Positions 8,677 to 58,897 of a DNA stretch of 64,000 nucleotides are shown in pieces. Origin of the DNA: a virus (taxonomy: Duplodnaviria > Caudoviricetes); the IMG/VR virus record IMGVR_UViG_3300046474_000147, positions 1,437-65,436 of that record. The stretch is one strand, 5' to 3'. The stretch's first letter is position 1, and each line of letters starts with the position of its first letter. The position numbers and the translations under genes were made by a program. The notes below the pieces were generated by a model, which did not search any database, was not told the DNA's origin, and saw nothing but the letters and a program-made list of their open reading frames with translations.

Positions 8677-11277
8677 TCACAGTTCGTCGTCATCGTCCGT
8701 ACCGGCACGAGCGTCGAGCACGAATTTTCGCACTTTCGCGTTGTCGATCACTACCGCGCCACCGTCGCCGTCCGAAGTCTGGAACATTTCGACGTTCCGC
8801 GTGTAGTAGGTGCGGTAATCGGTGCCGACGCGGACCTTGCCGATACACTCGAAGCGGTGCCGCGACATCATCGACCCGACTGCCTTGTTGCCTGGTACGT
8901 CCAAGCCGCGATCCATGAGAACTTCCGTCAGTCGCACGCCGTCGATCAGGTCATACGAGATCAGCGGGTCCACTTCTTCAGTGATGATGTCGGTGAGGTT
9001 CTGGATAAACTCAGGCTGCGCCTGGCGGATCATGTACTTCTTCGCATCCGTGGTCGGCGCGTCACCGAACGGCTTGAACGAGTCGCTTTGCTCCCACTCC
9101 AACAGCCACTTCCGCAGCGCCGGGGCCGAAGTCTGAATGCTCGCGTACAGATCCTCGTAGTAGTCGGGGTTCTCATCCTTGAACGCGTCCAACTTGTCCT
9201 TGCGCTGCCACTGGCTGAACAGCACGCAGTAACGGCGGCCGTCATCGTCGAGCGGCAGCGCATCGCGGTAGTTCGAGAACAGCAGATAGCTCGTCGTGTT
9301 GGTCGCGTTGTACGTGCTCTTGCCTTTCGGGTGAACCTCGATGATGTCGTTCGTGATGTTCGGCTTGATCCTGTTGAGCAGTTCGTACTTGTTGTGCGCG
9401 TTGATGAGGCGGACTTCTTCGATGCAGGTGAGGCACTGGCCGACGAGCCAATCGGTGAACGACGATTCGAGGATATGCGCGTTGAGCATCTGGACGTTCG
9501 ACACGCCCATCACCGCGCGCATGAGGAATGCGAAGAACGACTTGCCGTCACCCTCGACGCCTTGCAGCAGGATCGACCAGTTGACGTGACGGCCTGGGTT
9601 CTGCACAACCCACGACAGCCAATCGAGCAGGATGCGACGTTCTTCCTGCTTCACGAGCAGGTGGCGAATGTGATTCTTCACGCGGCGGATCGCTGCTTTG
9701 TCGCGCGGCAGCAGTTCGTCCGGCAGTTTGGGGATCTCGTGCTCAGGATAGGTGTTCGCATACACGCCATCGGCAGCGTAGAACACCGGATCTTTGCCCG
9801 GCTCGTAGCGGCGACCGTTGACGACCTTGATCTTGTAGAGATTCAGCGCGAGTGCGGACGCCGACGACGACGGCGACGACTTGCCGTCCAAGATGTCCTT
9901 CTTGGTCAGTGCGTAGCGGTCGAACATCGCGTCGAAGCCCTGCTTCGTGGTCGAGATATTGCGCTTCGTGTCGTAGAAGCGGTCGTCGCTCGTGTCGTAC
10001 ACCCAGCCTTCGCACCAACCAGGCATTTTTTCGCCTTTCGACGGTGAGTATGCGATGGCTTTCTTCACTTCCGACAGCGGCGTTTTCGTGCCGGTGATGA
10101 TGTCGATGCGATCCTTCGCCAGCGATGCCAGCGCGGCGCGCGCCAGGCCGTCGATCTCGGCTTCGCGCGCAGCGTCGCGCGCCTTGTTCCACTCGATCAG
10201 CGTTTTCGCGTCCGAGAATTTGTCCTTCAGCGTGACCATGAGTTCGGCCGCGCTTTCTGCCGCAGCTTCTTTCGACAAGCGCAGGATGAAACGAGCGGTG
10301 ATCGGCGCACGCTTCTTGCCTTCGATGCCGAAGTCGTCCCAACGACGTTCAAGCGCGTCGCGGTCGTAGTTGTCGGCAGTCTCGCTCCACTCGTTCCACA
10401 GATTCAGGCCGGTTTCGTCGCCGTCGAACTGGTGGTACAGCGCCATACCAACCTGAACCCATGTCTCGTAATCGTCGGGATTCGGCACCATCATCAAGCG
10501 CGAGCGCAATTCCTGCTCGGTGATGTTCACGGCCTGCGTATCTTCGATGAACGGGTCGTCGTAGTCGATGTTTGCCAGCCCATTGTCGCGCTGCGACTTC
10601 ACGATCTTCCAATCGGATTCCTGCTTCGCGCGCTCGTGGAACCAGTTGATGAATTCCTGGCACTTCTCGACCGTGATCGGCGTGAGTTCGCTTGCCGGGA
10701 TCGTGAGCGGCCCACCGGCTTCGATCACGTCACCGACGCGGCCGGTTTTCTTGCCGTCCTTATCGACTTCGATCTCGAACTTCTCGTCCGGCCACGCATA
10801 CGGCTTTCCGGTGTCGGGGTGCGTGTGATAGACGACGCATTGCTGGCCGTCGCACAGGATCTCGATTTGGTGGAGTTCACCCCATTCGTCCTGATAGCGA
10901 TTCGACCGCATTTTGCGGAACGGTTTATCGGTGCGGTACAGCAGCAGGCGTTTCGGCGGCATGCCAATACGCAGCGGCGCAGATCCGAAGATCTCGCGCG
11001 CTTTTTTCTCGCAGTCGAGCGCAACCTTTTCGTCTCGCACGTCGATGTCAACGGCGGGGGTGAGCTTGGTCAGCACGCCGACGCCGGAATTGCGGTGCCC
11101 CGACTCGACCCATTCCTGAAGTTGCTGCTTGGTGCTGCGCGCCTTCGACCAGTTATCAAAGCCTGGCGCTTTTTTGCCGACCGCGATGGGTATGATCTCG
11201 TACCCGTTGTCGATCAGGTCCGATCCCAGGTAGGCCAGTGGCCCGCTATTCTTGGACGTGTATTCTTCTTTTTTCAT
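8677..11277 (-). CDS. Primase-helicase (Prim-Pol, PriCT-2, SF3 helicase)
   Basis: Start MKKEE overlaps the upstream stop; AVDIDV; DYETWVQVGMAL; GVEGDGKSF Walker A; CIEEV Walker B; FSNYRDALP motif C. Confidence 0.9.
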   Translation of the reverse strand: MKKEEYTSKNSGPLAYLGSDLIDNGYEIIPIAVGKKAPGFDNWSKARSTKQQLQEWVESGHRNSGVGVLTKLTPAVDIDVRDEKVALDCEKKAREIFGSAPLRIGMPPKRLLLYRTDKPFRKMRSNRYQDEWGELHQIEILCDGQQCVVYHTHPDTGKPYAWPDEKFEIEVDKDGKKTGRVGDVIEAGGPLTIPASELTPITVEKCQEFINWFHERAKQESDWKIVKSQRDNGLANIDYDDPFIEDTQAVNITEQELRSRLMMVPNPDDYETWVQVGMALYHQFDGDETGLNLWNEWSETADNYDRDALERRWDDFGIEGKKRAPITARFILRLSKEAAAESAAELMVTLKDKFSDAKTLIEWNKARDAAREAEIDGLARAALASLAKDRIDIITGTKTPLSEVKKAIAYSPSKGEKMPGWCEGWVYDTSDDRFYDTKRNISTTKQGFDAMFDRYALTKKDILDGKSSPSSSASALALNLYKIKVVNGRRYEPGKDPVFYAADGVYANTYPEHEIPKLPDELLPRDKAAIRRVKNHIRHLLVKQEERRILLDWLSWVVQNPGRHVNWSILLQGVEGDGKSFFAFLMRAVMGVSNVQMLNAHILESSFTDWLVGQCLTCIEEVRLINAHNKYELLNRIKPNITNDIIEVHPKGKSTYNATNTTSYLLFSNYRDALPLDDDGRRYCVLFSQWQRKDKLDAFKDENPDYYEDLYASIQTSAPALRKWLLEWEQSDSFKPFGDAPTTDAKKYMIRQAQPEFIQNLTDIITEEVDPLISYDLIDGVRLTEVLMDRGLDVPGNKAVGSMMSRHRFECIGKVRVGTDYRTYYTRNVEMFQTSDGDGGAVVIDNAKVRKFVLDARAGTDDDDEL

Positions 11278-11561
11278 GTGAGGTCGTGGATCTCGGTTGG
11301 GTAGATGAGCCATTCCCGGCGTACGCAATCACGACCGCATGCTTTCTCGATCTGCTGCGCCATCTTGGCCGAGAATTTGCCGCCCTTAATGGCGGCATGT
11401 ACCTCGGTGCGTTCGATTTTGCAGAAGTCAGCAAACGAAGCGATGTTGCCGCTAGGCGTACACCAGTTCGATGCCTTCAGAACGAGAAATCGCAGTCGCC
11501 GCGACGCGAGATCATCCTTCGGTGCGCGCGGATCATCGACCCACGCGGGAAAAGTAATCAT
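11274..11561 (-). CDS. Cro/CI-like HTH regulator
   Basis: ATG at 11561 after GGGGAGG; 95 aa; IASFADFCKIERTEVHAAIKGG HTH-like; divergent from the replication operon. Confidence 0.6.
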   Translation of the reverse strand: MITFPAWVDDPRAPKDDLASRRLRFLVLKASNWCTPSGNIASFADFCKIERTEVHAAIKGGKFSAKMAQQIEKACGRDCVRREWLIYPTEIHDLT

Positions 11562-11687
11562 GCAGTTGTCCTCCCCAAAACTATTTTTCAAAAACCTGTA
11601 AGAATTATCCCACAGGTGCTTGACGTGAATCAATTGATCGTGAGAATATTCTGGTCATGCACTGATACAGAACAACAGGGCGACAGA

Positions 11688-12080
11688 ATGGAAAATTTTG
11701 ACCTTATCGCAGCAGCGAAACAGCACGAGTCATTGGGATTCGATGCGCGTGATGTGGCGAAGCTGACGGTGAAGCAGTTGCACCTGTTGAAGCTGAAGAT
11801 GCACATGATCCACGACGCTTCCCGAAGCGCCGACAGGCGAAAAGCGATCCTCAAGGCGTGCCACGCATTCGAGGAACTGATCGAGCATATCCAATCGGGT
11901 GATCTCGACCGCGCAATTCGCAATTCGGATCGCGCAACGATGTTGTGCGCCGATGTCGAGTTGTCCAGGGAATCCGTCGCATTAGTTGTCGCCCAATCCA
12001 TCGCGCCGAATCAAGCATTCTGGCTTGTAGGACAAGGCCGACAACCGAGGATCGACGTATCCGGTGTCCTGAAAGAGTAA
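11688..12080 (+). CDS. Hypothetical protein
   Basis: ATG at 11688 after AGGG; 130 aa. Confidence 0.6.
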   Translation: MENFDLIAAAKQHESLGFDARDVAKLTVKQLHLLKLKMHMIHDASRSADRRKAILKACHAFEELIEHIQSGDLDRAIRNSDRATMLCADVELSRESVALVVAQSIAPNQAFWLVGQGRQPRIDVSGVLKE

Positions 12081-12157
12081 GTTTTGCAAAATGCGTTGAC
12101 CCACGGCGGTAAGTCAGCGCACCAAATAACCCGCCCTTTTTTTTAATGGAGTTCTGA

Positions 12158-12526
12158 ATGAGTATCGAACAACTGCTGCAAGGTGTCATCGAAGCACTGA
12201 ATGCCAACACCGCAGCCCTGCAAGGCAGCGCAGTCAAGACCACCGGCACCGGCACCTCGGGCGAAACCGGCACCGCATCGACCGGCAAGGGCGGCGACAA
12301 GGGCGGCGACAAGAAGAAAGGCCCGACCGTCGAAGAAATGCAGGCTGCGCTGACCGCCGTGAAAGAGAAGTTCGGCGCGGCCGAAGCCAAGTCGATCATC
12401 AAATCGGCCGGTGGCGTCGAGAAGATGAACGAGATCCCCGAGAAGAAGGTCAAGGCCGTGTTCGAGGCAGCCCAGGCCAAGCTGACCGCCGAGGACGACA
12501 CGACCGGCAGCGACGACGACATCTAA
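12158..12526 (+). CDS. Small protein of the type found upstream of DUF2800 genes (helical C-domain, acidic tail)
   Basis: 122 aa; G/T/K linker then a helical domain; ends GSDDDI. Confidence 0.8.
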   Translation: MSIEQLLQGVIEALNANTAALQGSAVKTTGTGTSGETGTASTGKGGDKGGDKKKGPTVEEMQAALTAVKEKFGAAEAKSIIKSAGGVEKMNEIPEKKVKAVFEAAQAKLTAEDDTTGSDDDI

Positions 12527-12532
12527 TCGTCG

Positions 12533-13837
12533 GTGGCCGAGCATCACATCAGCGTCGAGCAACTGCGCGACGCGATCAAACGAGTGGAGTCGGGCGGGCA
12601 TTCCGTGTTCGCCCCATCTGCCTCGAAGATGTGGCTCGGTTGCAGCGGATCTCTGATCGCCAACCTGTTTGCGCCGGACGATTCCGGCGAGGACGCGGCC
12701 TACGGCACCGTTGGTCACATGGTTGGTGAACAGTGGTTGAAGGATGGCGTGCGACCGAAGCACCTGCTAGGCAAAACGTATTGGGTTGACGGTTCCGACT
12801 TTGGGTATTTCATCACCATCGACGAGGTGATGATGGACTACGTGAAGCGGTACGTGGACTGGTGTAAGAACCTTCCCGGCGACCACTATGTTGAGACTCG
12901 CGTGGACTTCTCGCAGATAACGCCGATCCCGAATCAGGGTGGCACCGCTGACCATTGCGCATGTTCGTATCAGCGCATGGTCATCACCGACCTGAAGATG
13001 GGTAAAGGTGTGCGGGTCTATGCTGAGAAGAACACCCAAGCTTTGCTGTACGCGTTGGGATTCTTTTTGGAGTGGGACTGGCTGTACGACTTCCAAGAGA
13101 TCGTGATTCGCATTGCGCAGCCGCGCCTGGACGTGTTCGAGGACTGGACTGTGGATCGCGAGTATCTGCTGAAGTTCGCGGAGTACGCCAAAGAGCGAGC
13201 AGCGGCAGCGTGGGTCGTGGGTGCGCCGCGTACCCCAAGCGCGGAAGCGTGTCAGTGGTGCCGCGTTCAAGCGACGTGCGCCGCGAAAGCGAAGGTGGTG
13301 TTCGACCTGACTGGCGGCGCGTTCGACGATCTGAGCGAGCCTATCGGAACTGAGGGCATGCTGTACTTCCGCGAAGTGCTGCGTGATACCGATGCACCCG
13401 AAGCCATCAACGCCGCGACGCTGACGACATTGGAGTTGGAGAAGCTGTTCGCGTGGCGCAGCACGATCACGCGGTACTTCGACAAGGTGGCTGAAGAACT
13501 CGAAGGTCGCGCCAAGCGCGGTGTGAAGCTGTCGCAGTACAAACTGGCGGAAGGTCGCTCGTTCAGGGCATTCCGCAACAAAGATAAGGCCGTCGAGAAG
13601 TTGGTCGGCCTTGGCCTGAAGCGTAAGGATCTCGTCACCGAAGAGGTGGCAAGTCCGGCGAAGGTCGAAGAGTTGCTTCGCAAGGCCGGTTATAAGGGCA
13701 AGGACATTCCAGATCTGTTGAAGGATCTCGTGTTCAAGCCGCCTGGCAAGGCAACCCTGGTGTCAGTCAAAGATCGAAGGCCAGCCCTGGCCGACGCCTA
13801 CGACGACGCCTTTAGCGAGTTTGACGAGAAATCGTGA
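12533..13837 (+). CDS. DUF2800 / Cas4-like PD-(D/E)xK exonuclease
   Basis: FAPSASKMW, GTADH, TDLKMGKG, YALG, CQWCR motifs; position upstream of the SSB. Confidence 0.85.
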   Translation: MAEHHISVEQLRDAIKRVESGGHSVFAPSASKMWLGCSGSLIANLFAPDDSGEDAAYGTVGHMVGEQWLKDGVRPKHLLGKTYWVDGSDFGYFITIDEVMMDYVKRYVDWCKNLPGDHYVETRVDFSQITPIPNQGGTADHCACSYQRMVITDLKMGKGVRVYAEKNTQALLYALGFFLEWDWLYDFQEIVIRIAQPRLDVFEDWTVDREYLLKFAEYAKERAAAAWVVGAPRTPSAEACQWCRVQATCAAKAKVVFDLTGGAFDDLSEPIGTEGMLYFREVLRDTDAPEAINAATLTTLELEKLFAWRSTITRYFDKVAEELEGRAKRGVKLSQYKLAEGRSFRAFRNKDKAVEKLVGLGLKRKDLVTEEVASPAKVEELLRKAGYKGKDIPDLLKDLVFKPPGKATLVSVKDRRPALADAYDDAFSEFDEKS

Positions 13838-13881: not shown

Positions 13882-14520
13882 ATGTCCGCACTGGTAGTCA
13901 AGAAGAGTGGTAAGAACTTTGTGCTGTACGAGAACGGCATGATCCGCGTCGATAACGTCCGCTTCTCTTATCCCCACGTCGATAAGCCGTGGAAGAAGGA
14001 AAGCGACAAAGGCACGGCGAAATACGGCCTCGTCGGCATGCTGCCGAAAGAGACGCACGAAGAAGCCAAGAAGGTGATCGCTGAAGAAATGAAGCGCCAC
14101 CTGGCCGAAGCGAAAATCAGCGTCCCTGCCGACAAGAAGTTCCTGCGCGATGGCGACGCCAACCGCGACGAGGATAGCGGTGACGACGCGAGCAACAGCT
14201 ACGCCGGTCACTGGTTCCTGTCGGCGCGCGAAACGAACCGTCCGACTCTCCGCGACGCTTCCGGTCGCAAGCTCGATCCGGTCGAAGATCTCGAAACCAT
14301 CAACGAGTTGTTCTACGGTGGTGCATGGGGTCACATGCTGATTCGTCCTTGGGTTCAGAACAACGAGCACGGCAAGCGCATCAACGCTGGCCTGGTCGGT
14401 GCGATGTTCAAGAAGAACGACAAAGCGTTCGGCCAGGGCCGCGTTGACGATTCCGGCGCATGGGACGACGTTGCCGACGATACCGGCTCGACCGGCGACG
14501 GCGAAGACGACGACCTGTAA
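13882..14520 (+). CDS. DUF2815 single-stranded DNA-binding protein
   Basis: VRFSYPHV, FYGGAWG, NEHGKRINAGL, FGQG; acidic tail GEDDDL. Confidence 0.85.
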   Translation: MSALVVKKSGKNFVLYENGMIRVDNVRFSYPHVDKPWKKESDKGTAKYGLVGMLPKETHEEAKKVIAEEMKRHLAEAKISVPADKKFLRDGDANRDEDSGDDASNSYAGHWFLSARETNRPTLRDASGRKLDPVEDLETINELFYGGAWGHMLIRPWVQNNEHGKRINAGLVGAMFKKNDKAFGQGRVDDSGAWDDVADDTGSTGDGEDDDL

Positions 14521-14590: not shown

Positions 14591-16792
14591 ATGCCAACAA
14601 CGAACAAATACCTAGAAAAGCGGGACGAAGCCGCGACCGATACCGAGTGCTACATCGACTATTGGAGCATCGGCTTCAAGAATCTCGCGACCGGCAAGAA
14701 GGTCATCATCGAGAAGTACGATGGCCTGGATCTCGACCGAGCGAAGATCAAGCGCATCATGCGCAAGTTCCGCCTGTACTCGTTCAACGGGCTCGGGTAC
14801 GACATGCCGATGATCGCGCTGGCGATGGCTGGTGCCAGCAACAAGCGCCTGAAGGAAGCGAGCGATGACCTGATCGCGAATCGTCTGCCGGTGTGGCGGT
14901 TTTGGGAGAAGTACGGCGTCGAACTGCCGGAATGGCTCGATCACATCGACATCATGGAAGTCGCACCAGGCGTCAGGCTCTCGCTGAAGAAGTACGGCGC
15001 GCGCATGAACATGAAGCGCCTGCAAGAACTCCCGATTGATCCGAGCGAACCAGTCGGCGCGCACCGTCGTCCGCTCATGCGCGTGTACCTCGGTAATGAC
15101 CTCGACACGACCGCAGAACTGGCGCTTGGCCTGCGCGAAGAGATCGACATTCGCAACGAGATCAGCGCCGAGTACAACATCGACGTGCGCTCGAAGTCGG
15201 ACGCGCAGATCGCGGAAGCTCTCATCAAGGCCGAGGTCGAGCGAGTCACCGGCCGCAAGATCGAGAAGCCGGTGGTCAAGACTTTCAGCTTCAAGTACGA
15301 GGCACCAGACTTCATCAAGTTCAAAACGCCGCTGCTGCAAGAGGTGCTGGAAGTGGTCACGTCCACACGCTTCTTCGTCAGCGGCGAGCCCGATCCAATC
15401 GGAGCGAAGAAGAAGAACTTCGGCGTCGTGCGACTGCCGCAGGCCATCAAGGATCTGAAGATCCGCATTGGCTTCACCGACTACAAGATGGGTATTGGCG
15501 GTCTGCACTCGAAAGAGAAGCGCCGCTCGTATATCGCGGGCGATGACACGATCATCGAGGATCGCGACGTGCGCGCCTACTACCCGCGTCTCATGCTCGC
15601 ATGCGGCTACGTGCCCGCCGCACTCGGCCAGAACTTCCTCGGCGTGTTCTCGAAGTTCGTGAACCTGCGCGACAGCTACAAGATCAAGGCCGCGAAGCTC
15701 AAGAAGTTGGGCGACGCGGGCGGATCACTGAAATACAAGAAGCGTTCTGATTCCTTCAAGATCGTCAACAACGGCACGTTCGGTAAAACCGGATCGCCGT
15801 ACTCCGTCGTGTACGCGCCGAAGCTCATGATCTCCACCACGATCACCGGCCAGCTTTCGCTGCTCATGCTGATCGAGGAACTGGAATTGAACGGCTTTAC
15901 TGTGATCTCCGCGAACACTGACGGCATCGTTACGGTGATCGAGCGTGACCGCTACTGGCTGTTCAACGCAATCGTGTTCGAGTGGGAGTGCGCAACGTCG
16001 TTCCAGACTGAAGCCGTGCGATACCTCGGTGTGTACAGCCGCGACGTGAACAGCTATGTTGCTGTGGTCGAGGACGCGAAGAAGCCAGGCCAGGTCGCGA
16101 TGATCGAGGACAAGGCTGCCGGTACGATGGTGCCGGAAGTGAAGCGCAAAGGTCTGTTCGCGAAGGCGGGCCTGCAAGCCAAGCACGATCCGACATTCGA
16201 CATTTGCTCGACTGCCGTGGTCGAGTACCTGATACACGGCACCGACATCGAGGACACGATCACCGGCTGCACCGACATCACGCAGTTCATCGGTGTGAAG
16301 CAGGTGGGCAAGGTCAAACTCGGCAACGGCAAGATGGCCGAAGGCGGCTACGACGTTCACGGCAACTACCTCGGCAAAATGGTGCGCTGGTACTACGGTG
16401 AAGGTGAGCGTGGATTTATCGCGAAGGCGAACGGTGCCCGCGTGGCCGGTACGACCGGCGCGGTGCCGTGCATGGATCTGCCGGACGAACTGCCGGACGA
16501 CATCGACTACCGCTGGTACGTGCGCGAGGCGTATGCGCGCTTGAACGACATCGGCCTGACCGTGAAGAACCCGCGCCTCGCCGGTCGCCAGGGCTACGTG
16601 CCTGCGATCCTGCCGGGACAAAAGACCGCGCACATCATCGACCTGCAAACGATGCAGGCGTTGTGCGGTCGTGAAGAGAAGAACGTGCGCGAGCCGTGGG
16701 AAGAACTCAACGTGATCCAAGACCACATTCGCGTTTGCCGCAAGTGCCAGGACGAACGCGCGCTGCCTGACGACGAAGAGGATGAGGATTGA
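14591..16792 (+). CDS. DNA polymerase, family B-like, with 3'-5' exonuclease
   Basis: DTEC, FNGLGYDMPM, YLGND exonuclease motifs; DVRAYYP (A), KIVNNGTFGK (B), SANTDG (C). Confidence 0.85.
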   Translation: MPTTNKYLEKRDEAATDTECYIDYWSIGFKNLATGKKVIIEKYDGLDLDRAKIKRIMRKFRLYSFNGLGYDMPMIALAMAGASNKRLKEASDDLIANRLPVWRFWEKYGVELPEWLDHIDIMEVAPGVRLSLKKYGARMNMKRLQELPIDPSEPVGAHRRPLMRVYLGNDLDTTAELALGLREEIDIRNEISAEYNIDVRSKSDAQIAEALIKAEVERVTGRKIEKPVVKTFSFKYEAPDFIKFKTPLLQEVLEVVTSTRFFVSGEPDPIGAKKKNFGVVRLPQAIKDLKIRIGFTDYKMGIGGLHSKEKRRSYIAGDDTIIEDRDVRAYYPRLMLACGYVPAALGQNFLGVFSKFVNLRDSYKIKAAKLKKLGDAGGSLKYKKRSDSFKIVNNGTFGKTGSPYSVVYAPKLMISTTITGQLSLLMLIEELELNGFTVISANTDGIVTVIERDRYWLFNAIVFEWECATSFQTEAVRYLGVYSRDVNSYVAVVEDAKKPGQVAMIEDKAAGTMVPEVKRKGLFAKAGLQAKHDPTFDICSTAVVEYLIHGTDIEDTITGCTDITQFIGVKQVGKVKLGNGKMAEGGYDVHGNYLGKMVRWYYGEGERGFIAKANGARVAGTTGAVPCMDLPDELPDDIDYRWYVREAYARLNDIGLTVKNPRLAGRQGYVPAILPGQKTAHIIDLQTMQALCGREEKNVREPWEELNVIQDHIRVCRKCQDERALPDDEEDED

Positions 16793-16795
16793 AGC

Positions 16796-17092
16796 ATGGT
16801 CAAAATCTTGGATAAATCGCTGCTCGAAAGCGACAACACCGGCGATGCCCACAAGTACGCAGAACGGCGCGGCTGGTGGACGATCAAGGTCGAGTCACCG
16901 ACGTGCAACGGCATACCTGATCGCCTGTATCTGCGTCGCGGGAAGTACGTGTGGGTCGAATGGAAGCGCCCTGGACGCGGCAAAGATGGCCTGTCAGCGA
17001 TCCAAGTTATCCGAATCAAAGAAATGCGCAAGCACGGCGCAGAGGTGTTCGTGCTCGACGACATCGAAGAATTCAAGAGGATCATGAAATGA
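16796..17092 (+). CDS. VRR-NUC endonuclease
   Basis: GIPDRL, VWVEWKRPG, LSAIQ...G..VFVLD. Confidence 0.85.
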   Translation: MVKILDKSLLESDNTGDAHKYAERRGWWTIKVESPTCNGIPDRLYLRRGKYVWVEWKRPGRGKDGLSAIQVIRIKEMRKHGAEVFVLDDIEEFKRIMK

Positions 17093-18870
17093 GCGCAGTC
17101 GCAGATCAATTCCTGCTCGGCATTCGCGCCAAGTTCGCGGACGTTGAACTGTACCGATACCAGATGCACGGCTATCAGAACATCGGTCTGAAGTTCTTGC
17201 GCGATAACCCGTTCTCCGCGCTGTTCATCGACATGGGCCTCGGTAAAACGGTCACGTCGCTGACGCTGATTGCGGACCTGTTGGCCGAGTTCGCGAACGA
17301 CGACAAGGTGCTCGTGATCGGCCCGCTGAAGGTGGCGACGCGCACCTGGCCCGACGAGATTCGCAAGTGGAATCACCTGGCGCACTTGAATTATTCGGTG
17401 ATCCACGTCGATGATGAGGATGAGCGCATCAAGGCTGAGTACAGGTCCGCGTACAAGCAGCGTCTTGCCAGCAGCACCGAGTTGTTCAAGTCCGAGAAGC
17501 AGAAGGACGCCGCGAAGTGGGCAACCGGCGTCGCAGCGCAGAAGCGCGAGGAACTGCGGATTGCGGCCACGCTCGATCCCGCATCGGTCCACATGATTAG
17601 CCGCGACTGGATCGACTGGCTCGTGACGTACTACCGCGTGGCGAAGAAGCCCTGGCCGTACCGCACAATCATCATCGACGAGTCGAGCGGCTTCAAGGAT
17701 CACAACTCGGGCCGCTTCAAGGCGCTGCAAATGATCGTCGATAACGGCAAGGTGGATCGCCTGCACCTGCTGACGGCGACGCCAGCGACGGAAGGCTACA
17801 TCGGCCTGTTCCCGCAGATGTACCTGCTGGATCGCGGCGCACGGCTCGGCCGCAACATCACCGCGTACCGCTCGCGCTACTTCACCGAGAACAGGTGGAC
17901 GCGCAAATGGGATCTGCGCGAAGGTGCGGAGAAAGAGATCCTTGCGAAGATCTCCGACATATGCCTCGTGATGAAAGAAGAGGACTATCTGCCGAAGGTG
18001 CCACCGCTGTTCGTGAGGCGGTATGTTCACATGACAGCATCGCAGCGCGAGTTGTACCTGACGATGGAAAAGGACATGGTGGTGACGCTCGACGACGGCA
18101 CCGAGGTCGAAGCGGAGACTGCTGCGGCGCTGTCCGCGAAGCTGCTGCAAATGGCGTCAGGCGTCCTGTACGACACGAAGCTCGAACCGGGGCAGACCGA
18201 GGACGACGATCATGTGAAGATCACCAAGATCCACAAGATCCACGATCACAAGATCGAGGAACTGAAGCAGATCGTGGAAGAGTCGCAGGGCAAGCCGATC
18301 CTCGTCGGCTATCACCATCGCTCGTCGAAGGACCGACTGCTGAAGGCATTCCCGCAGGCCGTTATGATGGACAAGGACGGCAAGAACATCAAGAAGTGGA
18401 ACAAGGGGAAGATCCCGATTCTGCTCATGCACCCGCAGTCGGGCGGTCACGGTCTGAACCTGCAAGCAGGTGGTCACATCATCGTGTTCTTCGACATTCC
18501 GTGGTCGCTCGAACTGTACCTGCAATTCATCGGTCGCCTGGCCCGCCAAGGTCAGAAGTTCCGCGTCACCGTGTTCCTGTTGATGTGCAAGGACACGCTC
18601 GACGAAACCGTGGTCGATGCGTTGACGGCGAAAGAGAACGCGCAGGACAAACTCTTCAAGATCCTCAAGCGCATGCGCTATCGCCTGCGCAAGCTGCTGA
18701 AGGGTCGCACGAAGAAGATCGTGGCCGGTGATCCAGAGTGGGACAAGGTTGTGGACGTGCTCACCGGCTTCGCTGATCTCGACGACGCGGCGGAAAGCGA
18801 CGGCATCGAAATCGGTGACGGTCTGCGCGACGATGAGATCGTGAAGGCCGTCGAAGATGACGAACTCTGA
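17089..18870 (+). CDS. SNF2-family helicase
   Basis: ATGA overlap; DMGLGKT, IIIDESS, LTATP, HPQSGGHGLNLQ, GRLARQGQ. Confidence 0.9.
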   Translation: MSAVADQFLLGIRAKFADVELYRYQMHGYQNIGLKFLRDNPFSALFIDMGLGKTVTSLTLIADLLAEFANDDKVLVIGPLKVATRTWPDEIRKWNHLAHLNYSVIHVDDEDERIKAEYRSAYKQRLASSTELFKSEKQKDAAKWATGVAAQKREELRIAATLDPASVHMISRDWIDWLVTYYRVAKKPWPYRTIIIDESSGFKDHNSGRFKALQMIVDNGKVDRLHLLTATPATEGYIGLFPQMYLLDRGARLGRNITAYRSRYFTENRWTRKWDLREGAEKEILAKISDICLVMKEEDYLPKVPPLFVRRYVHMTASQRELYLTMEKDMVVTLDDGTEVEAETAAALSAKLLQMASGVLYDTKLEPGQTEDDDHVKITKIHKIHDHKIEELKQIVEESQGKPILVGYHHRSSKDRLLKAFPQAVMMDKDGKNIKKWNKGKIPILLMHPQSGGHGLNLQAGGHIIVFFDIPWSLELYLQFIGRLARQGQKFRVTVFLLMCKDTLDETVVDALTAKENAQDKLFKILKRMRYRLRKLLKGRTKKIVAGDPEWDKVVDVLTGFADLDDAAESDGIEIGDGLRDDEIVKAVEDDEL

Positions 18871-18937: not shown

Positions 18938-19165
18938 ATGGCGAAAGAGTGCAAGGAAATAGTCGAGTTCGAGGCGCTAGTCGGCCTCGGATCGACTGAC
19001 GCATGCCGCGTTCTCGGCATCGCGTACTCCACCTACGCGGCGTATCGCAACTGCGGTCGCCCGCTCCAACCTTATCACCGCAATCACATCGACGTTATCG
19101 GCCGCCTGTCGCGCCGCGAACTGTCACAACTTATCGACGAGCGAGTACATGGTATCGAGAACTGA
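18938..19165 (+). CDS. Small HTH DNA-binding protein
   Basis: LGSTDACRVLGIAYSTYAAYRN HTH; 75 aa. Confidence 0.7.
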   Translation: MAKECKEIVEFEALVGLGSTDACRVLGIAYSTYAAYRNCGRPLQPYHRNHIDVIGRLSRRELSQLIDERVHGIEN

Positions 19166-19751
19166 ACTGACTGACGAAAAGACCCGCGCGATTCTGTACG
19201 ACGGTGCGAACTTGTCGCAGCTTGGCAATCTGTTCCGCATGGATCACCGCGTCCTCGTAGAGAAGCTGGAAAAGGGTAAGTGCCAACCGTGCGGCAAGCG
19301 CAACGGCGCGAACATCTACGCGGTGCATGAGGTGGCACCGTTCCTTGTAAAGCCTGCGTACGAGATCGAGGAATACATCAAGCGCATGCACCACAACGAT
19401 CTACCCAAGCACCTCACGAAAGAGTTTTGGGCCGGTCTGCGTTCGCGTCAGGAATACGAACAGCGTGAAGGCAATCTGTGGCCGACAGAGCGCGTGGTCA
19501 GTGCTGTCGGCTCGTTTATGAAGCTGGTCAAGATGAGCGTGCGACTCATGGCTGACGCGGTTGATCGCCAGGCGGAACTCACGCCACGCCAACGCGCAAT
19601 CGTGAAGGCGCAGGGCGACGGCATGCTCGAAGAACTGTACCGCAACGTGATCGAGGAATTCAGCAAAGAGCCGACAAACCCAAGCGTCGTTGACCAGGCC
19701 AATGCTGCGGTTGACGCGGCGCGAGAAGAGGAAGATGACGATGCGCTTTAA
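19149..19751 (+). CDS. terS: Terminase small subunit
   Basis: Directly upstream of the large subunit; N-terminal HTH-like NLSQLGNLFRMD; coiled-coil middle. Confidence 0.75.
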   Translation: MVSRTELTDEKTRAILYDGANLSQLGNLFRMDHRVLVEKLEKGKCQPCGKRNGANIYAVHEVAPFLVKPAYEIEEYIKRMHHNDLPKHLTKEFWAGLRSRQEYEQREGNLWPTERVVSAVGSFMKLVKMSVRLMADAVDRQAELTPRQRAIVKAQGDGMLEELYRNVIEEFSKEPTNPSVVDQANAAVDAAREEEDDDAL

Positions 19752-26856: not shown

Positions 26857-27159
26857 ATGCCAAAACGTATCGCAGTTAATTCCATCGTCGTGTACCGCGA
26901 CGGCAAACGCTTCACCGTCAAGCCGGACCAGATGTTCGACTTCACCGACGCCGAACTGGCCGACATCAAGCGCAGCGCGTCGGACGCCGTACGTCAACCG
27001 ACTCCCGAGAACGCCGTGGTCGAAGTGAAGCTGCCTGGCGCGTCGGCACCGGCAGGCGGCAAGGGTAGCGGTGGCCGTGGTGGCAACAAGACGCAGCAGC
27101 AAGCCGCCGAGCAAGCCGACGCACCGAAGGCTGACGCAACCGGCGACGACGAAATCTAA
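26857..27159 (+). CDS. Head-associated hypothetical protein (FI-like position)
   Basis: 100 aa, RBS GGAGA, low-complexity tail ending TGDDEI. Confidence 0.7.
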   Translation: MPKRIAVNSIVVYRDGKRFTVKPDQMFDFTDAELADIKRSASDAVRQPTPENAVVEVKLPGASAPAGGKGSGGRGGNKTQQQAAEQADAPKADATGDDEI

Positions 27160-54303: not shown

Positions 54304-54364
54304 TTCCGTTAAAAAGAGAAGGTGCTTGGCCGGTGTGGAGAGATCCGCACCGGCCTTTTTCTTT
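54304..54364 (+). ncRNA. Candidate trans-acting antisense sRNA, about 60 nt
   Basis: The promoter fires into no ORF; 5' TCCGTTAAAAAGAG is complementary to several phage RBS leaders; ends in an intrinsic terminator. Confidence 0.55.
54328..54364 (+). terminator. Intrinsic terminator
   Basis: GGCCGGTGTGGA-GAGA-TCCGCACCGGCC then TTTTTCTTT. Confidence 0.85.
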
Positions 54365-54365
54365 A

Positions 54366-54755
54366 CTAGTCCGACGCGCGGCGCGCAAGGCGCTGCGGAC
54401 CTTCCCGCAACTGATCCTCGTCGATCCAGTCCTCGCAGAAGCGGCCGGTCTTGTCCGAGTACGCCACCTGATAGCGCGGCAGGCGCGAATTCACATGCTC
54501 CGCGCGACCGCGCACCTTGCCTACAACCTGCGTGGTCGTTATCGTCACGCGCTCGTTCAACTCGAACTTGAACTTGATGGACTGATCCCCATTCGCCTTG
54601 CTCGGCGGCTTAGGCGGATCTGCTGCCGGTGCGCCACCATTGTTGCCCGCTGCTGCGGCTGCCTCGCGCGCAGCTTTTGCGCCAGGCTTCGGACCCGGCT
54701 TGCTGCCGCGAGTTTTGCGGGGCTTCTTCACTTTCGGTTCACCTGTTGTTGCCAT
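54366..54755 (-). CDS. Basic low-complexity N-terminus with a small beta-barrel-like C-domain
   Basis: 129 aa; K/P/A-rich then FKFELNERVTI...EDWIDEDQL; RBS ACGGAGAAG. Confidence 0.75.
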   Translation of the reverse strand: MATTGEPKVKKPRKTRGSKPGPKPGAKAAREAAAAAGNNGGAPAADPPKPPSKANGDQSIKFKFELNERVTITTTQVVGKVRGRAEHVNSRLPRYQVAYSDKTGRFCEDWIDEDQLREGPQRLARRASD

Positions 54756-54768
54756 CTTCTTCTCCGTT

Positions 54769-54794
54769 AAAAAGCGCAGCGGAATCCCCGCTGC
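54769..54794 (-). terminator. Intrinsic terminator whose U tract abuts the next RBS
   Basis: Minus strand GCAGCGG-GGATT-CCGCTGC-GCTTTTT-AACGGAG. Confidence 0.65.
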
Positions 54795-54800
54795 CGGGTA

Positions 54801-55121
54801 CTACAGTTCTTCGTCGAGCGTTGTGTCCCTCTTCGCCAGCACGACCACCTCGGGGCACCTGTCGGTGCGCAGCGTTTCGGTGTACGCGCTGCTGCCGTGC
54901 AGAGTGCCCTGAATGTGATTGAAAACCGCATCCAGGCGTGCGATGTTGGGGGCGATCACGATAACGTCCTGCCCGGCCACCTTGCACGCCATCGCGCGCC
55001 CGGCGTAGGCGATGCTCCCTTCCCGCACCTTCAGCGCAATCTCGGCGGGCAGTTCGACTTGTCGCATCATGTCTCCCAACGTGCTATGCCTTATCGTGAA
55101 GTCGTCGTCAGCCTGCGACAT
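54801..55121 (-). CDS. Hypothetical protein ending LDEEL
   Basis: ATG at 55121 after GGAGA; 106 aa. Confidence 0.7.
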   Translation of the reverse strand: MSQADDDFTIRHSTLGDMMRQVELPAEIALKVREGSIAYAGRAMACKVAGQDVIVIAPNIARLDAVFNHIQGTLHGSSAYTETLRTDRCPEVVVLAKRDTTLDEEL

Positions 55122-55500
55122 GGCCGTTCTCCGCGAGATCGCACAGCCCGGCGAACGTGGTGGCGGCGACCATGCGCGCATGCAGCAATGCGGCCTTATC
55201 GTCGGCAGGCGCGCTCTTCATGTAGCCGAGTTCCTTGAAACGTGGATCTGCGCTAGACATGAAGATCGCCATTGACTTCGAGGTAAGCATTTCGTAGCGC
55301 GCGCCCATCAACAGTGCTGATTCGAGGATCAGCGCATCGGCCGGATTTGCGAGCGGGCGGAACGTCGCGATCACGTCGGGCGGAACGACGCTGCGATCCA
55401 CGCGGATAAGGCCGTGCGAAGTCTCCGACCACTCGAACGCGGTCAAGTCCATTCCGATGATGCGGGCCGCTGCTCGTGTCACTTCTTCGAGGCGATTCAT
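55108..55500 (-). CDS. Hypothetical protein
   Basis: 130 aa, overlaps its neighbours. Confidence 0.7.
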   Translation of the reverse strand: MNRLEEVTRAAARIIGMDLTAFEWSETSHGLIRVDRSVVPPDVIATFRPLANPADALILESALLMGARYEMLTSKSMAIFMSSADPRFKELGYMKSAPADDKAALLHARMVAATTFAGLCDLAENGHVAG

Positions 55501-56246
55501 TCTGCGCCACCGTTCAGGGAAACGCGCACAATGCCGCTGTCGTCCAGTGGGTCACCGGCATACGGTGCGCCGAGCGGGCCGTCGTAGAAGCCAACCAGCG
55601 AGTCAGGCGGCGGGGGTGCTGCGTCGAGGATCGTGGAGAGGCTGAATGCGATTTGCTTCCTCTGCTCGTCGCCGCATCGCGCAAGTGCGGCCTCGATCCA
55701 TTCCGGCGTTGCGACCTTCAGGATCGCCTCGATCCATTCCGGGGTCGGCTTTTCCGGCACAAGCTTGAAGCCTGCGGGCACGTTGACACGCATGCGCGCC
55801 GGGCGCAGGCGGCGCTCTGGCACCTGGCCGTGTACCGCGCCGTTGCGCATCATCCAGCCAACCACGGCGTCCGCGTCCGCGTTCTTCAGGTTGAACTTCA
55901 GGATCGAACCGGCCTTGTAATACACGACCGCCTTGCGATTCAGCTTGTCGAGCGGGCCTGGTTCCCACTCGATGCGCCGGATCGACTCGTACACGAGTTG
56001 GTACGGCACGCCGCTCATGCTGTCGATGACGTTGAAGATGGTCCTGTCGTAACGGCTGAGTCCGTTCTGCGCCAGCCAGCTACGCACGCGGCGCACGCCG
56101 TCGATGCCGATGATGTGCGACTTCGGATATTCCCCTTTACGTTCAACCTGAATCGTGTTGATGTCGACGAAGGTGACGCGCGCATTGGCGTCGAGCGTAA
56201 CCATCGCGTCGTCGCTCTCGTCTTTCACTTTAATCGTTTCACTCAT
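55497..56246 (-). CDS. Hypothetical mosaic protein
   Basis: ATG at 56246 after GAGGA; VPAGFKLVPEKPTPEWIEA segment with duplicated PEWIEA. Confidence 0.7.
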   Translation of the reverse strand: MSETIKVKDESDDAMVTLDANARVTFVDINTIQVERKGEYPKSHIIGIDGVRRVRSWLAQNGLSRYDRTIFNVIDSMSGVPYQLVYESIRRIEWEPGPLDKLNRKAVVYYKAGSILKFNLKNADADAVVGWMMRNGAVHGQVPERRLRPARMRVNVPAGFKLVPEKPTPEWIEAILKVATPEWIEAALARCGDEQRKQIAFSLSTILDAAPPPPDSLVGFYDGPLGAPYAGDPLDDSGIVRVSLNGGAE

Positions 56247-56253
56247 GGCGTCC

Positions 56254-56610
56254 TCACAGTTCTTCGTCATCGACCAGCTTCGCGCGCATTGCTGCTTCGC
56301 GCTCGCGCAGGGTTGGGCCTTGCAGGGACAAGCCGAAGCCGGGCTTGCGCACCTCGGGCATCAACTCTTTCATGATCGGCTCACCGACGAACGTGTACGT
56401 CCACTCGTCGCCGTCCAGGCCGTCCTCGTGCCGGATGGTCAGTTCGCCGCGCTCGACGAGAATCACGCCGTCGATGCCGATTGCCGGAATGCGCTTTTCG
56501 AGCAGGCTCTTGACGATACCCACGCCGGACATGAATAGGTTGAATTTCGGGTTGCCTTTTCCGCCGAGTTGGTCGCGCGTGAACGTCACGCTGATAGTTT
56601 CGATTCCCAT
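56254..56610 (-). CDS. Hypothetical protein ending DDEEL
   Basis: 118 aa. Confidence 0.7.
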   Translation of the reverse strand: MGIETISVTFTRDQLGGKGNPKFNLFMSGVGIVKSLLEKRIPAIGIDGVILVERGELTIRHEDGLDGDEWTYTFVGEPIMKELMPEVRKPGFGLSLQGPTLREREAAMRAKLVDDEEL

Positions 56611-56611
56611 T

Positions 56612-56899
56612 TCAGAATCCTTTGAACTTGAATACCTCGCCCGCGATCAGGTATGCGATCACAAGCGCCACAGCGACCACCGCGACAAGCGCAACGATCC
56701 AGAGTCGAGTGAACTCGTCGTCGTCGCGCACGACATAAGAGGTGACACGCACAGCACCCATGAGCAGCAGGACGCCGCAGAGGGTGACGTACGCGGCAGG
56801 GAACGATGGTCGCGACCACAGGCCACCGATAAGCGACGCCATCGTTCCAACGCTGAACGCGGCGGCGATCATGAGGCATTTGAGAATGTTATCGAGCAT
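56612..56899 (-). CDS. Small membrane protein with three predicted TM helices
   Basis: 95 aa hydrophobic; RBS ACGGAGAG. Confidence 0.7.
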   Translation of the reverse strand: MLDNILKCLMIAAAFSVGTMASLIGGLWSRPSFPAAYVTLCGVLLLMGAVRVTSYVVRDDDEFTRLWIVALVAVVAVALVIAYLIAGEVFKFKGF

Positions 56900-56912
56900 T
56901 GTGCTCTCCGTT

Positions 56913-56942
56913 AAAAAGAACCGGGCCGCGCGTGCGACCCGG
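56913..56942 (-). terminator. Intrinsic terminator whose U tract abuts the next RBS
   Basis: Minus strand CCGGGTCGC-ACGC-GCGGCCCGG-TTCTTTTT-AACGGAG. Confidence 0.7.
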
Positions 56943-56953
56943 CGTGCTGCGAA

Positions 56954-57259
56954 TTACTTGGTCACGGCCGGGCTGATCTCGGCCACCTTACGCCCGCGCA
57001 GGTTCAGCACGTTGATGACGAATGCGCCCAACTCGAACTTGCAGGTTGAAGGGTAGTCAGCGAGGACGGTGCGCAGTTGGCCGACGTTCTTGACCTCGTG
57101 CTTCGCAATCGTGTCCGCCTTCTTCAGCGGCTTCTTGTCGATCACCTTGGCCTGGACCGGATCGGCGCGCTTTGCGTCTTTGAATGAGCGGCGCACACCG
57201 AGCGTGTCTTTGCTCGTCGCGGCGGCCAGGGTGTTAGCGGAGGTCTTTTTGGTTGCCAT
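56954..57259 (-). CDS. Basic hypothetical protein, first gene after the 57.3 kb promoter
   Basis: ATG at 57259 after AAAGGA; 101 aa. Confidence 0.75.
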   Translation of the reverse strand: MATKKTSANTLAAATSKDTLGVRRSFKDAKRADPVQAKVIDKKPLKKADTIAKHEVKNVGQLRTVLADYPSTCKFELGAFVINVLNLRGRKVAEISPAVTK

Positions 57260-57303
57260 TTTTGGCGTCCTTTCGTTTTGGTTGTGGTTACTGCTGAGTT
57301 GAG

Positions 57304-57332
57304 AATATACCGACAAGGAATTTCCGTGTCAA
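57304..57332 (-). promoter_or_regulatory. Sigma70 promoter containing operator A (57312..57330)
   Basis: Minus strand TTGACA-17-TATATT; embeds GACAAGGAATTTCCGTGTC. Confidence 0.8.
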
Positions 57333-57339
57333 ATCTTTT

Positions 57340-57564
57340 TCACAAGTCTTGATCTATCCCTAGATCGGATTCCAGTTTCGCAATTACGCGACGCTGGTGC
57401 TCGACTTGTGCGCGTAGCCTGGTCGATTCTTCCTCGGCTTCGCGGACGCGCTGGCCGCTCGGGCTCTCGATCAGCGCGTGCAGCGGGACATTGTGCTTGC
57501 CGCACACGTCGAGCAGTTTGCGAAGCGAATCGAGCACGGCTGGCGGCAGCGATTTAGAGTTCAT
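57340..57564 (-). CDS. Hypothetical coiled-coil protein
   Basis: 74 aa. Confidence 0.6.
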   Translation of the reverse strand: MNSKSLPPAVLDSLRKLLDVCGKHNVPLHALIESPSGQRVREAEEESTRLRAQVEHQRRVIAKLESDLGIDQDL

Positions 57565-57808
57565 CGAACGAGCCCTCTTCGCGCCAGATCCGCACGCCTG
57601 GCTGCTGATAGATCTCGTCCAGTTCGACGCGCATGATCTTGATGCCGCAGCCTACGCGCAGCGCCGGGCGGCGCAGGAATTCAACGTCGCCCGGTTCCGC
57701 GTCGGGAACGAAGATCGAATCGCCCACCTTCAGGCGGGCGAACTTCTCGATCAACTCGACGACCTGATTAGAGTTCTTCGTCGCTTCCGTCACGATCTTC
57801 ACCTTCAT
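57554..57808 (-). CDS. Small protein (VGDSIFVP...GVRIWR type), possibly DNA-binding
   Basis: 84 aa; ends GSFDEL. Confidence 0.7.
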   Translation of the reverse strand: MKVKIVTEATKNSNQVVELIEKFARLKVGDSIFVPDAEPGDVEFLRRPALRVGCGIKIMRVELDEIYQQPGVRIWREEGSFDEL

Positions 57809-58739
57809 TGAGCACGGTGGTCACGCCGTCGAGGATCTGCTTGAACGTCTTGGCGAGCAGCCAGTACGTCGCGTGCAGATCGTCGGTGTCATTGCCGATC
57901 CCGGTAATCGTCACATCGGACAGCTTCACACCCTTGAACACGAACTTGTCGGTAAGCGTGAAGTCGGCCACAGCGTCGTCGAGCACGACGTACGACATCG
58001 CCAGTTCGACGACGTTGTAGGTGCCGGTCGCCATGACCTTCTGCACTTCTTCGCTCGACACGTCGCGTTCGGACACGCTGATCGTGCGCTTGTCCTCGCC
58101 CTTGAACTTGCCCTTCTTCCCGGCGTGGAGCGCGGTGCCATCGTCGTCGATGCCGAGCGTGGTGTTGCGCGCCAACTCGGCCAAGATGTAGCCCGGCGAG
58201 ACTGCGGTCTTGATGTCGATGAACTCGAACTTGATGTTGCGCGCTTCGGCCAGGCGGTTGAGGAAGTGCAGCACGCTCTCGACCTTCTTCGCGCTCGTCG
58301 AGCAGATCATGATGCGATCCTTGAACACGAGGACCGGCACAGTGCTGCGCACGATGAACGCCTGCGGCAGCAGCGAGTTCTCAACATCCTCGCGCAGTTG
58401 CGCGTATTCCTGCTTGTTGAGCTTGCGGCTGCCCTTCTCGGTCAGTTCCGCGTAGCGGGTCGAGATCTTCTCGTCGCGCACCGACGCGGGCAGCTTGCGC
58501 TCGTTGAACTGCACGACCATGAGCCGCGCGGTGCCGTCGAGATCGTGGACGTAGCGGCCTTCATCGACCGGCCCAACGAAGCCCATGCTCGACCATGTTG
58601 TAGCTGCCGGATCTTTCGCGATGAAGTGCTCAATCGCGTCGGCGGTCTTTTCAGGATTGCGCGCAGCGCGGCCACACCAGTCGTACAGGGCGGCCGTGGT
58701 GGCGAACGGCATGAACGCCTTGATGAGTTTATTTTTCAA
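57768..58739 (-). CDS. rdgC: RdgC-like recombination-associated protein
   Basis: MGFVGP, ERKLPASVRD, LREDVENSLLPQAF; 323 aa; typical of chi-like phages. Confidence 0.8.
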   Translation of the reverse strand: MKNKLIKAFMPFATTAALYDWCGRAARNPEKTADAIEHFIAKDPAATTWSSMGFVGPVDEGRYVHDLDGTARLMVVQFNERKLPASVRDEKISTRYAELTEKGSRKLNKQEYAQLREDVENSLLPQAFIVRSTVPVLVFKDRIMICSTSAKKVESVLHFLNRLAEARNIKFEFIDIKTAVSPGYILAELARNTTLGIDDDGTALHAGKKGKFKGEDKRTISVSERDVSSEEVQKVMATGTYNVVELAMSYVVLDDAVADFTLTDKFVFKGVKLSDVTITGIGNDTDDLHATYWLLAKTFKQILDGVTTVLNEGEDRDGSDEEL

Positions 58740-58897
58740 AGTTCTTCCTCTTCGTCTTGGGTTTCGGGCTTTTGCGACACGTACTCGGTCACGTAGTCGC
58801 CCTTCTCGCGCCGCTTGTTAGCGACATCTTCTTTCAGCGTGAGGTACGGATCGCCGCCCTTCGCAGGTTCGATGATCCACGCTATCGGTTTCTTCAT
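58736..58897 (-). CDS. 53-aa protein ending QDEEEEL
   Basis: MKKPIAWIIEPAKGGDPYLTLKEDVANKRREKGDYVTEYVSQKPETQDEEEEL; TTGA overlap with rdgC; not in the track. Confidence 0.65.
   Translation of the reverse strand: MKKPIAWIIEPAKGGDPYLTLKEDVANKRREKGDYVTEYVSQKPETQDEEEEL

Follow-up and report, generated by a model that had tools for sequence, protein, structure and literature searches.

Unrelated proteins encoded by a single phage share a short acidic tag at their C-terminus that ends in a hydrophobic residue, and among relatives of this phage the identity of that last residue (the tip) changes in many tagged proteins together. The stretch of DNA analysed here, hereafter the window, comprises 64,000 of the 65,436 bases of one phage genome (IMG/VR record IMGVR_UViG_3300046474_000147, positions 1,437 to 65,436; G+C ~60%). 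Judged from DNA and protein searches, this phage is a Chi-like siphovirus of the family Casjensviridae. Given that unrelated folds keep one C-terminal peptide and repeatedly switch its tip together, a shared reader contacting the tip is the simplest explanation, and we consider it probable (roughly 0.6) that the tail serves as a shared docking tag for one, or very few, common reader sites.

At the DNA level, the TerL and portal genes matched those of Burkholderia phage AH2, BcepNazgul and Chi, while the primase shared 52% identity with its counterpart in Pseudomonas phage SS2019XI and 28–44% with those of FoX4, phiAxp-2, AH2, Enc34 and Chi. The close relatives referred to below are ten IMG/VR contigs of ~65 kb, with 70–85% identity in the protein that binds single-stranded DNA (SSB). 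The Casjensviridae primase as such is present in more than 400 records. Lineage counts refer to 28 lineages collapsed from an SSB tree, and loci labelled L001 and so forth are from IMG/VR.

An acidic C-terminal tag on unrelated phage proteins

A sequence-only reading of the window had listed eleven proteins with acidic C-termini ending in Leu or Ile. We called the genes independently, using a codon-usage model trained on long open reading frames (ORFs), which yielded 77 proteins for the genome; which start codon is chosen has no influence on a C-terminus, and the same calling applied to Chi agreed with the deposited annotation. All eleven termini read exactly as listed, as did three weaker cases (DDEEDED in the polymerase, IDQDL at 57340 and DDQEPL at 59456), and the identities proposed for the primase-helicase, the gp2.5-like SSB, the SNF2 helicase, the small terminase subunit (TerS) and RdgC were supported by Pfam and PHROG. 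The capsid, portal and tail proteins of this phage were indeed devoid of the tag, the single carrier in the head module being the protein at 26857, which was already among the eleven. The carriers, the weaker cases and one untagged member of the same gene block are as follows:

8677..11328, minus strand: primase-helicase (Prim-Pol + PriCT_2 + DUF5906), 883 residues, ending GTDDDDEL, tail encoded at 8680-8697
12158..12526, plus strand: p122 (Chi gp4 ortholog, phrog_7721), with a low-complexity N-terminal part, a helical module and the tail, ending GSDDDI
12533..13837, plus strand: DUF2800-type exonuclease (phrog_69; Chi gp6 ortholog), 434 residues, untagged, ending SEFDEKS
13882..14520, plus strand: gp2.5-like SSB/annealase (PF10991, phrog_112), 212 residues, ending GDGEDDDL
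14591..16792, plus strand: family-A DNA polymerase of 'type 1' with a Cys-containing C-terminal extension, ending DDEEDED (acidic, without a hydrophobic tip)
16951..18870, plus strand: SNF2-family helicase, ending VEDDEL
19149..19751, plus strand: TerS (phrog_141, DUF1441), ending EEDDDAL
26857..27159, plus strand: p100 (DUF7443, Chi gp18 ortholog), directly after the major capsid gene, ending TGDDEI
54801..55181, minus strand: small early protein, 126 residues as called, ending TLDEEL
56254..56610, minus strand: small early protein, 118 residues, ending VDDEEL
57340..57564, minus strand: small early protein, 74 residues, ending GIDQDL
57554..57808, minus strand: small early protein (phrog_7200), 84 residues, ending GSFDEL
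57768..58739, minus strand: RdgC-family protein (PF04381), ending DGSDEEL
58736..58897, minus strand: 53-residue protein, ending QDEEEEL
59456..60079, minus strand: 207-residue protein with weak helix-turn-helix (HTH) matches below Pfam thresholds, ending TDDQEPL

The enrichment check that had been proposed for these termini came out clearly positive. The motif [DE]{2}A?[LI] stands at the C-terminus of 11 of the 77 proteins versus 0.22 expected from its internal frequency (58 motif ends among 20,273 internal positions), which corresponds to a 50-fold enrichment over background (binomial P 5.9e-16). It was absent from all 396 ORFs in non-coding (shadow) frames, and even a broader motif was found in only 2 out of 320 proteins of the control phages T7, lambda, phiKMV, D3 and T1, called in the same manner. 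About a dozen carriers, that is roughly a tenth of the proteome, are thus tagged. A profile over 273 distinct tagged termini shows D or E at position -5, D at -4 and -3, E or D at -2 and L, V or I at -1, and L, V, I, M or F is the last residue in 222 of 266 strongly acidic distinct termini (83%). Both the composition of the tails and the predicted local distance difference test (pLDDT) scores of AlphaFold2 (AF2) models for the SSB and p100 indicate a disordered, acid-rich C-terminal segment. Its last residue is conserved as hydrophobic, and is aliphatic rather than Phe except in the lineages with mixed F and I tips described below.

The tag is widespread in the family. Ten other complete genomes encode 5–14 tagged proteins each, as counted under two slightly different tag definitions. 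By reciprocal best hits, the core carriers are the primase-helicase, p122, the DUF2800 exonuclease, the gp2.5-like SSB, TerS, p100 and RdgC, while the SNF2 helicase, the 57554 protein, the portal (in FoX4 only) and the 1262 ortholog (in V-type genomes only, see below) are lineage-restricted carriers. Among the close relatives, the tail was retained in every tagged family, and close orthologs kept the residue class at 75–100% of the last four positions, whereas the 20 residues preceding the tail were merely 10–43% identical in eight of ten families. p100 illustrates this pattern: in an alignment of 39 sequences, conservation is confined to the N-terminal domain (~50 residues) and the last 3-4 residues, and the linker between them varies in length from ~10 to ~100 residues. 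Tails are therefore kept in orthologs and the adjoining linker is not, which is the signature of a short linear motif, with the motif preserved and its flank diverging in both sequence and length.

The differing codons of the tails had been taken as a sign of selection on the peptide rather than on the DNA. The tip codons (CTG, CTC, CTT and ATC) and stop codons (TGA, TAA and TAG) were quoted correctly, and the argument extends to ten further genomes. Indeed, each of the eleven genomes writes the tip in several synonymous codons (up to five or six in one genome), such as TTA, CTA, CTT and CTG in MA12 or GTT, GTG, GTC and GTA in Chi, from which we conclude that selection acts on the peptide. Moreover, 7–14 distinct last-four-codon strings were found per genome, nearly one for every tail, which excludes the homogenisation of a DNA repeat.

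A by-product at the nucleotide level, through either Shine-Dalgarno and translational-coupling signals or gene conversion between short repeats, is consequently close to refuted. Such an origin could draw on the tight packing of the genes, some tails overlapping the start of the next gene (the distance from the end of a tagged gene to the next gene ranges from -41 to +70 nt, and TerS and TerL overlap by ~60 nt), and on a certain codon-level bias: the Glu codons within the last six codons of the eleven tagged genes comprise 16 GAA and one GAG, compared to 51% GAA in the genome (Fisher P 3e-4), while the ends of untagged genes have no GAA bias (26 GAG, 17 GAA). This bias is common to the close relatives, often in the form of the rare GAA CTT, but is absent from other lineages. 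Translational coupling was rejected given that the tail codons (GAC, GAT and GAA) do not resemble a Shine-Dalgarno sequence, that the distance to the next gene is variable, with gaps of 45-70 nt behind several tagged genes, and that no shadow ORF carries the motif. Gene conversion between tails was rejected on the grounds of the synonymous tip codons and the nearly always distinct codon strings.

Coordinated changes of the tip between lineages

The tip is nearly uniform within a genome and depends on the lineage. We distinguish L-type phages (the window phage, SS2019XI, FoX4, AH2 and MA12), V-type phages (Chi, Enc34 and PibeRecoleta), I-type phages (the Aeromonas phages BUCT551 and A18P4) and those with a mixture of F and I tips (Cronobacter phage JC01 and contig L083). 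For instance, all 14 tags of MA12 end in L and all nine of BUCT551 in I, while Chi has nine V tips and one I under the strict motif. Across the 28 lineages, we counted 38 pairs of families within the same genome that had an identical non-L tip versus an expectation of 5.8; not one of 20,000 column shuffles gave as many pairs.

To place these types phylogenetically, the SSB, exonuclease and primase were concatenated after removal of their last 25 residues (39 rows, 1388 columns; quick search under the LG+G4 model). On the resulting tree, the non-L types occupy at least seven places (V three, I two, F/I two), each beside L-type neighbours:

Chi clade, V: five of six locus families, plus p100, RdgC and the 1262 ortholog in whole genomes
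L062, V: two families
L088, V: two families
Aeromonas phages, I: all families
L077, I: 3-4 families
JC01, F/I: six families
L083, F/I: six families plus the polymerase

A single clade was rejected by the approximately unbiased (AU) test both for the I type (difference in log likelihood 494, p 1e-10) and for the F type (difference 520, p 5e-57). The ligand residue has hence changed in a coordinated manner across proteins, repeatedly and independently.

Such concerted changes bear on the question of whether the tag is read by a host protein, for example a pocket of the SSB interactome, a chaperone or a protease adaptor, in which case the tags would plug phage proteins into the host machinery. 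Bacterial SSBs recruit many host enzymes through acidic tails with a hydrophobic tip, and in the present data set the host genus or group differs from one tip type to the next. However, the V tip is kept across phages of Salmonella, Hafnia/Enterobacter and Providencia, yet phages of two other genera of the Enterobacterales differ, with F/I in those of Cronobacter and L in those of Pectobacterium, even though the conserved hubs of these hosts hardly differ. The tag also lacks the Pro-Phe of the host SSB tip. A host reader therefore appears unlikely to us. As far as these comparisons go, the tip tracks phage phylogeny rather than host taxonomy, and for this reason the reader is more likely to be phage-encoded than host-encoded.

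The same changes speak against the notion that the tail is a stability signal, either an anti-degron, as the sequence-only reading had offered among its options, or a device for protease timing, rather than a docking peptide. Acidic residues near the C-terminus are known to blunt tail-specific proteolysis, but non-polar C-terminal ends are destabilising, so that the conserved aliphatic tip would be left unexplained. Neither would a stability signal predict the coordinated switching between L, V, I and F, and nothing was found in support of a shared anti-degron; we regard this explanation as highly improbable.

A putative docking motif and candidates for its reader

Based on these data, we propose that the tail could act as a short linear docking motif, D/E-D-[D/E]-aliphatic with a free carboxylate, presented on a flexible and fast-evolving linker. 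A common site would recognise the acidic run, and a pocket would take the last side chain. By this means, proteins of replication, recombination and accessory packaging functions, together with several small early proteins, would be brought to one hub, or compete with each other for it. The proposal is in line with the earlier idea of a phage-wide address tag, which is favoured by the conserved tails on variable linkers and by the joint switching of tips in six to nine families and at least seven lineages, although the hub itself was not found. The alternative suggestion that small carriers might act as decoys for SSB-tail pockets is compatible with the conservation, including the tails, of the proteins at 54801, 56254, 57340, 57554 and 58736 in close relatives.

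As for the identity of the reader, we rank the DNA-binding groove of the SSB first among the candidates, since it is the sole site with an experimental precedent in the gp2.5 fold family: in the crystal of the Enc34 SSB, the acidic C-terminus sits in the groove of a neighbouring molecule (PMC5686142). Another phage protein, for example through the helical module of p122, comes second, TerL third and the polymerase fourth, the latter being less likely given that two unrelated polymerase types alternate while the tags persist.

The SSB is also where an explanation without any common reader needs to be weighed. Each tail might fold onto a basic DNA-binding surface, its own or one nearby, as a DNA mimic, and the likeness of the tails would then reflect convergence among DNA-binding proteins. 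DNA binders do account for most carriers (the primase-helicase, SSB, SNF2 helicase, TerS, RdgC, the exonuclease and possibly the HTH protein), and removal of the tail from the Enc34 SSB altered its discrimination between single- and double-stranded DNA (PMC5686142). Likewise, the tail of T7 gp2.5 competes with single-stranded DNA for the protein's own groove, according to work cited in the same paper (PMC5686142). Nonetheless, neither a common last residue nor its joint change in at least seven lineages is expected of unrelated folds, and in p100 and several small carriers no DNA-binding domain could be recognised. Furthermore, the AF2 model of the SSB (built on a 43-sequence alignment) has a confident core from which the last ~25 residues remain undocked in cis, with pLDDT falling from 66 to 43. 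On balance, we hold convergence without a shared reader to be rather improbable.

Several observations weigh against a single shared reader, a proposal that rests on sequence comparison. No reader was found among the phage proteins: Pfam scans of 30 window proteins, including 20 non-structural ones without an assigned function, returned no PDZ, TPR or clamp-like domain, and when Pfam and PHROG scans of ~40 window proteins were considered, there was again no PDZ, TPR, clamp or other peptide-binding domain. In the SSB, no core column tracked the tip type (the columns that scored were all variable ones), and the undocked tail of its AF2 monomer provides no support either way. Searching 23 core ortholog groups in 11 genomes for columns that are invariant among the L-type genomes but differ in the V, I and F types gave scattered candidates only; the largest number for any one protein (8) fell into the primase, which is also the longest protein of the scan. 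With respect to the tips themselves, an I or M tip is frequent in p122 when the remaining proteins are L-tipped, F and I occur side by side in JC01 and L083, PibeRecoleta has seven V, four I and one L, and the switches in L062 and L088 rest on two families apiece. Lastly, the tree stems from a quick search, and the AU rejections cover the I and F types.

One SSB position deserves a separate mention. At residue 153, located in a beta-strand, most L-type phages have L, the Chi clade and L088 have V, and the Aeromonas phages have I. Exceptions to this mirroring of the tip are L062, L077, L078, L082 and L063 (three L-type relatives have I; L062 and L077 have L), meaning that the correspondence is partial and may be due to chance.

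The principle of a shared acidic C-terminal epitope is in print for T7 and T4, and what differs here is the larger scale, the wider reach and the co-evolving tip. In T7, the acidic tails of gp2.5 and gp4 dock on basic patches of the T7 polymerase (PMC12339929; PMC8472574). Read from the T7 sequence, these proteins end ADEDGDF and SNDTDF, respectively, and a scan of the T7 proteome revealed no tail carrier beyond these two. When T7 gp2.5 lacks its terminal Phe, suppressor mutations have been located in the polymerase. In both systems, a gp2.5-fold SSB and the primase-helicase of one phage carry a disordered acidic tail with a hydrophobic last residue; in the window phage these are the SSB (EDDDL) and the primase-helicase (DDDDEL). 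However, the two carriers of T7 compare with 11-13 here, among them TerS, a head-module protein, RdgC, SNF2 and small early proteins, and the T7 tip is Phe, while that of the window phage is aliphatic (L/I) and switches between lineages. Moreover, the polymerase type varies within the Casjensviridae, and docking is in this case deduced from comparing sequences.

In T4, gp43, gp33 and gp55 bear hydrophobic-acidic epitopes at the C-terminus that can be freely exchanged, sit on a divergent linker whose length varies, and dock on the gp45 clamp (PMC2988020). The window phage shares with T4 the placement of a short C-terminal epitope on such linkers in several unrelated proteins. In contrast, the hub in T4 is the phage clamp, whereas no clamp match emerged from the Pfam scans of the 30 window proteins. 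The epitopes of T4 are of a more hydrophobic nature, and their three carriers compare with about a dozen here. The tails described here also lack the Gln and the second hydrophobic residue of clamp-binding motifs (QL[SD]LF or the T4 epitope).

With the bacterial SSB tip, finally, the tag has in common that an acidic run, a hydrophobic end and a free carboxylate form the docking peptide. The topology is reversed, though: the bacterial system has one SSB tail and many readers, while many tailed proteins here would imply few readers. No tail of the window has the Pro-Phe of the bacterial consensus D-D-D-[IL]-P-F, which the SSB of control phage T1 does carry (DDDIPF), and the bacterial SSB is of the OB-fold tetramer type, as opposed to the gp2.5 fold of the window SSB. 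Within the limited library available to us, searches on multi-protein tails in Casjensviridae, the DUF2800/DUF2815 module and phage short linear motifs turned up no paper that describes the multi-protein tail; the study on the Enc34 SSB treats the tail of the SSB only (PMC5686142).

If one pocket does read all the tails, the family would organise replication, recombination and packaging via a single interchangeable peptide, which would extend the two-protein case of T7 and the three-protein clamp case of T4 to about a tenth of a proteome. The tag would then provide a cheap aid to annotation, with small tagged ORFs probably belonging to the DNA-transaction network, as well as a handle for pulling down the hub, and the lineage-specific tips would constitute a natural experiment in ligand-receptor co-evolution. 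More speculatively, and with considerably less confidence than for a docking tag as such, one might envisage a proteome-wide docking code in which a phage pocket, perhaps the SSB groove or the helical module of p122, binds the D-D-E-tip-COOH of some ten proteins, orders the hand-offs between replication, recombination and packaging and co-evolves with the tails. Under such a code, lineage-specific tips could insulate related co-infecting phages from each other's proteins.

Individual carriers and neighbouring genes

The primase-helicase ends in DDEL in all six close relatives compared, and elsewhere has V (Chi/Enc34), I (Aeromonas phages) or F (L083) as its tip. Directly downstream lies an untagged DNA methyltransferase (phrog_67; 7811-8665, minus strand), which ends SAIYEL. 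p122 is encoded by the first gene of the rightward replication operon and is tagged in 20 out of 21 lineages, notwithstanding its often deviating tip. Its helical module (residues 59-112) shares 39% identity (E 8e-9) with the dUTPase (gene 63208-63978) over residues 162-215 of the latter, and by this match the dUTPase holds a copy of the module. An ESM Atlas look-up of the p122 helical module returned unnamed viral clusters only.

For the DUF2800 exonuclease, the tag was lost in the clade of the window phage and is present in the orthologs of most other lineages. The window clade keeps the motif YDDAF[SN][ED][FV] (YDDAFSEF in this phage) two to six residues before the end, which is possibly an internalised form of the tag. 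The SSB has a tag in 27 of 28 lineages and a D[DE]DL end in all ten close relatives.

Polymerases of close relatives end in GEDI, and other type-1 polymerases in xE[LG]L or xSD[LI]. Type-2 polymerases, as found in Chi, the Aeromonas phages, JC01 and MA12, have a conserved FYRKD end and no tail. The slot after the SSB gene is filled by either of these two different family-A polymerases (loci L001-L089), and from the sequences this alternation looks like gene replacement within a syntenic module.

SNF2 is tagged in merely 11 of the 28 lineages. Nine out of nine close orthologs of this helicase end in [DYN]DEL, and the preceding 20 residues are 11% identical. In the V-type Chi clade (e.g., L056, L064 and L073), SNF2 instead ends in W-D-D-E-[DE](-[DE]), which is acidic, contains a conserved Trp and lacks a hydrophobic tip. 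TerS carries the tag in 18 of 22 lineages, and its tip matches the genome type.

p100 consists of a folded N-terminal domain of ~50 residues, a hypervariable linker and the tail; pLDDT values are ~90 for residues 1-50 and ~55 for the remainder. Its tail could be read in ~65 of 78 IMG/VR loci with a recognised capsid gene. The gene order agrees with that of lambda gpFI, but the two folds match weakly (Foldseek E 1.9; VIA Z 2.8, root-mean-square deviation 3.1 over 46 residues), below the level of unrelated small beta domains. The orthologs in L187, L188, L191, L203, L208, L221 and L229 carry a helix-extended-helix-like insert (e.g., TVPQLKELAEAREVDLGDATKKVDIIAKL) between the N-terminal domain and the tail.

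The small early proteins vary in the details of their ends. Orthologs of the 54801 protein, which had no Pfam or PHROG match, end in LDDEL or FDDEL, and five orthologs or paralogs of the 56254 protein in EDEEL, EEDEL, EDDEL or ADDEL. Counterparts of the 57340 protein in relatives end in GIDDEL or GIDQEL, and its own tail is, on this comparison, a conserved variant of the tag. The 57554 protein, whose orthologs end in YDEL or YDDL, is tagged in the other L-type genomes that have the gene (SS2019XI, FoX4 and MA12) and untagged in V- and I-type genomes. Orthologs of the 58736 protein end in EEDDEL or TEDDEL. RdgC ends in GDDL, DEDL, DDDL or DEEL in close relatives, and its tip agrees with the genome type in all ten genomes inspected (L in four, I in three and V in three). 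The orthologs of the 59456 protein end in EDQEPL, with DQEPL kept, so that this terminus is a possible variant of the tag.

A chemically different tail was observed in a distant outgroup clade with a DUF2800-SSB-polymerase block (L090-L106). There, the SSB ends LPPFMSAQ and the exonuclease ELPAWLS, with the non-acidic motif LPx[FW][ML] in common, which makes this a second instance of a tail shared by SSB and exonuclease. The polymerase of this clade ends EKLxLxLA, which resembles a clamp-binding motif.

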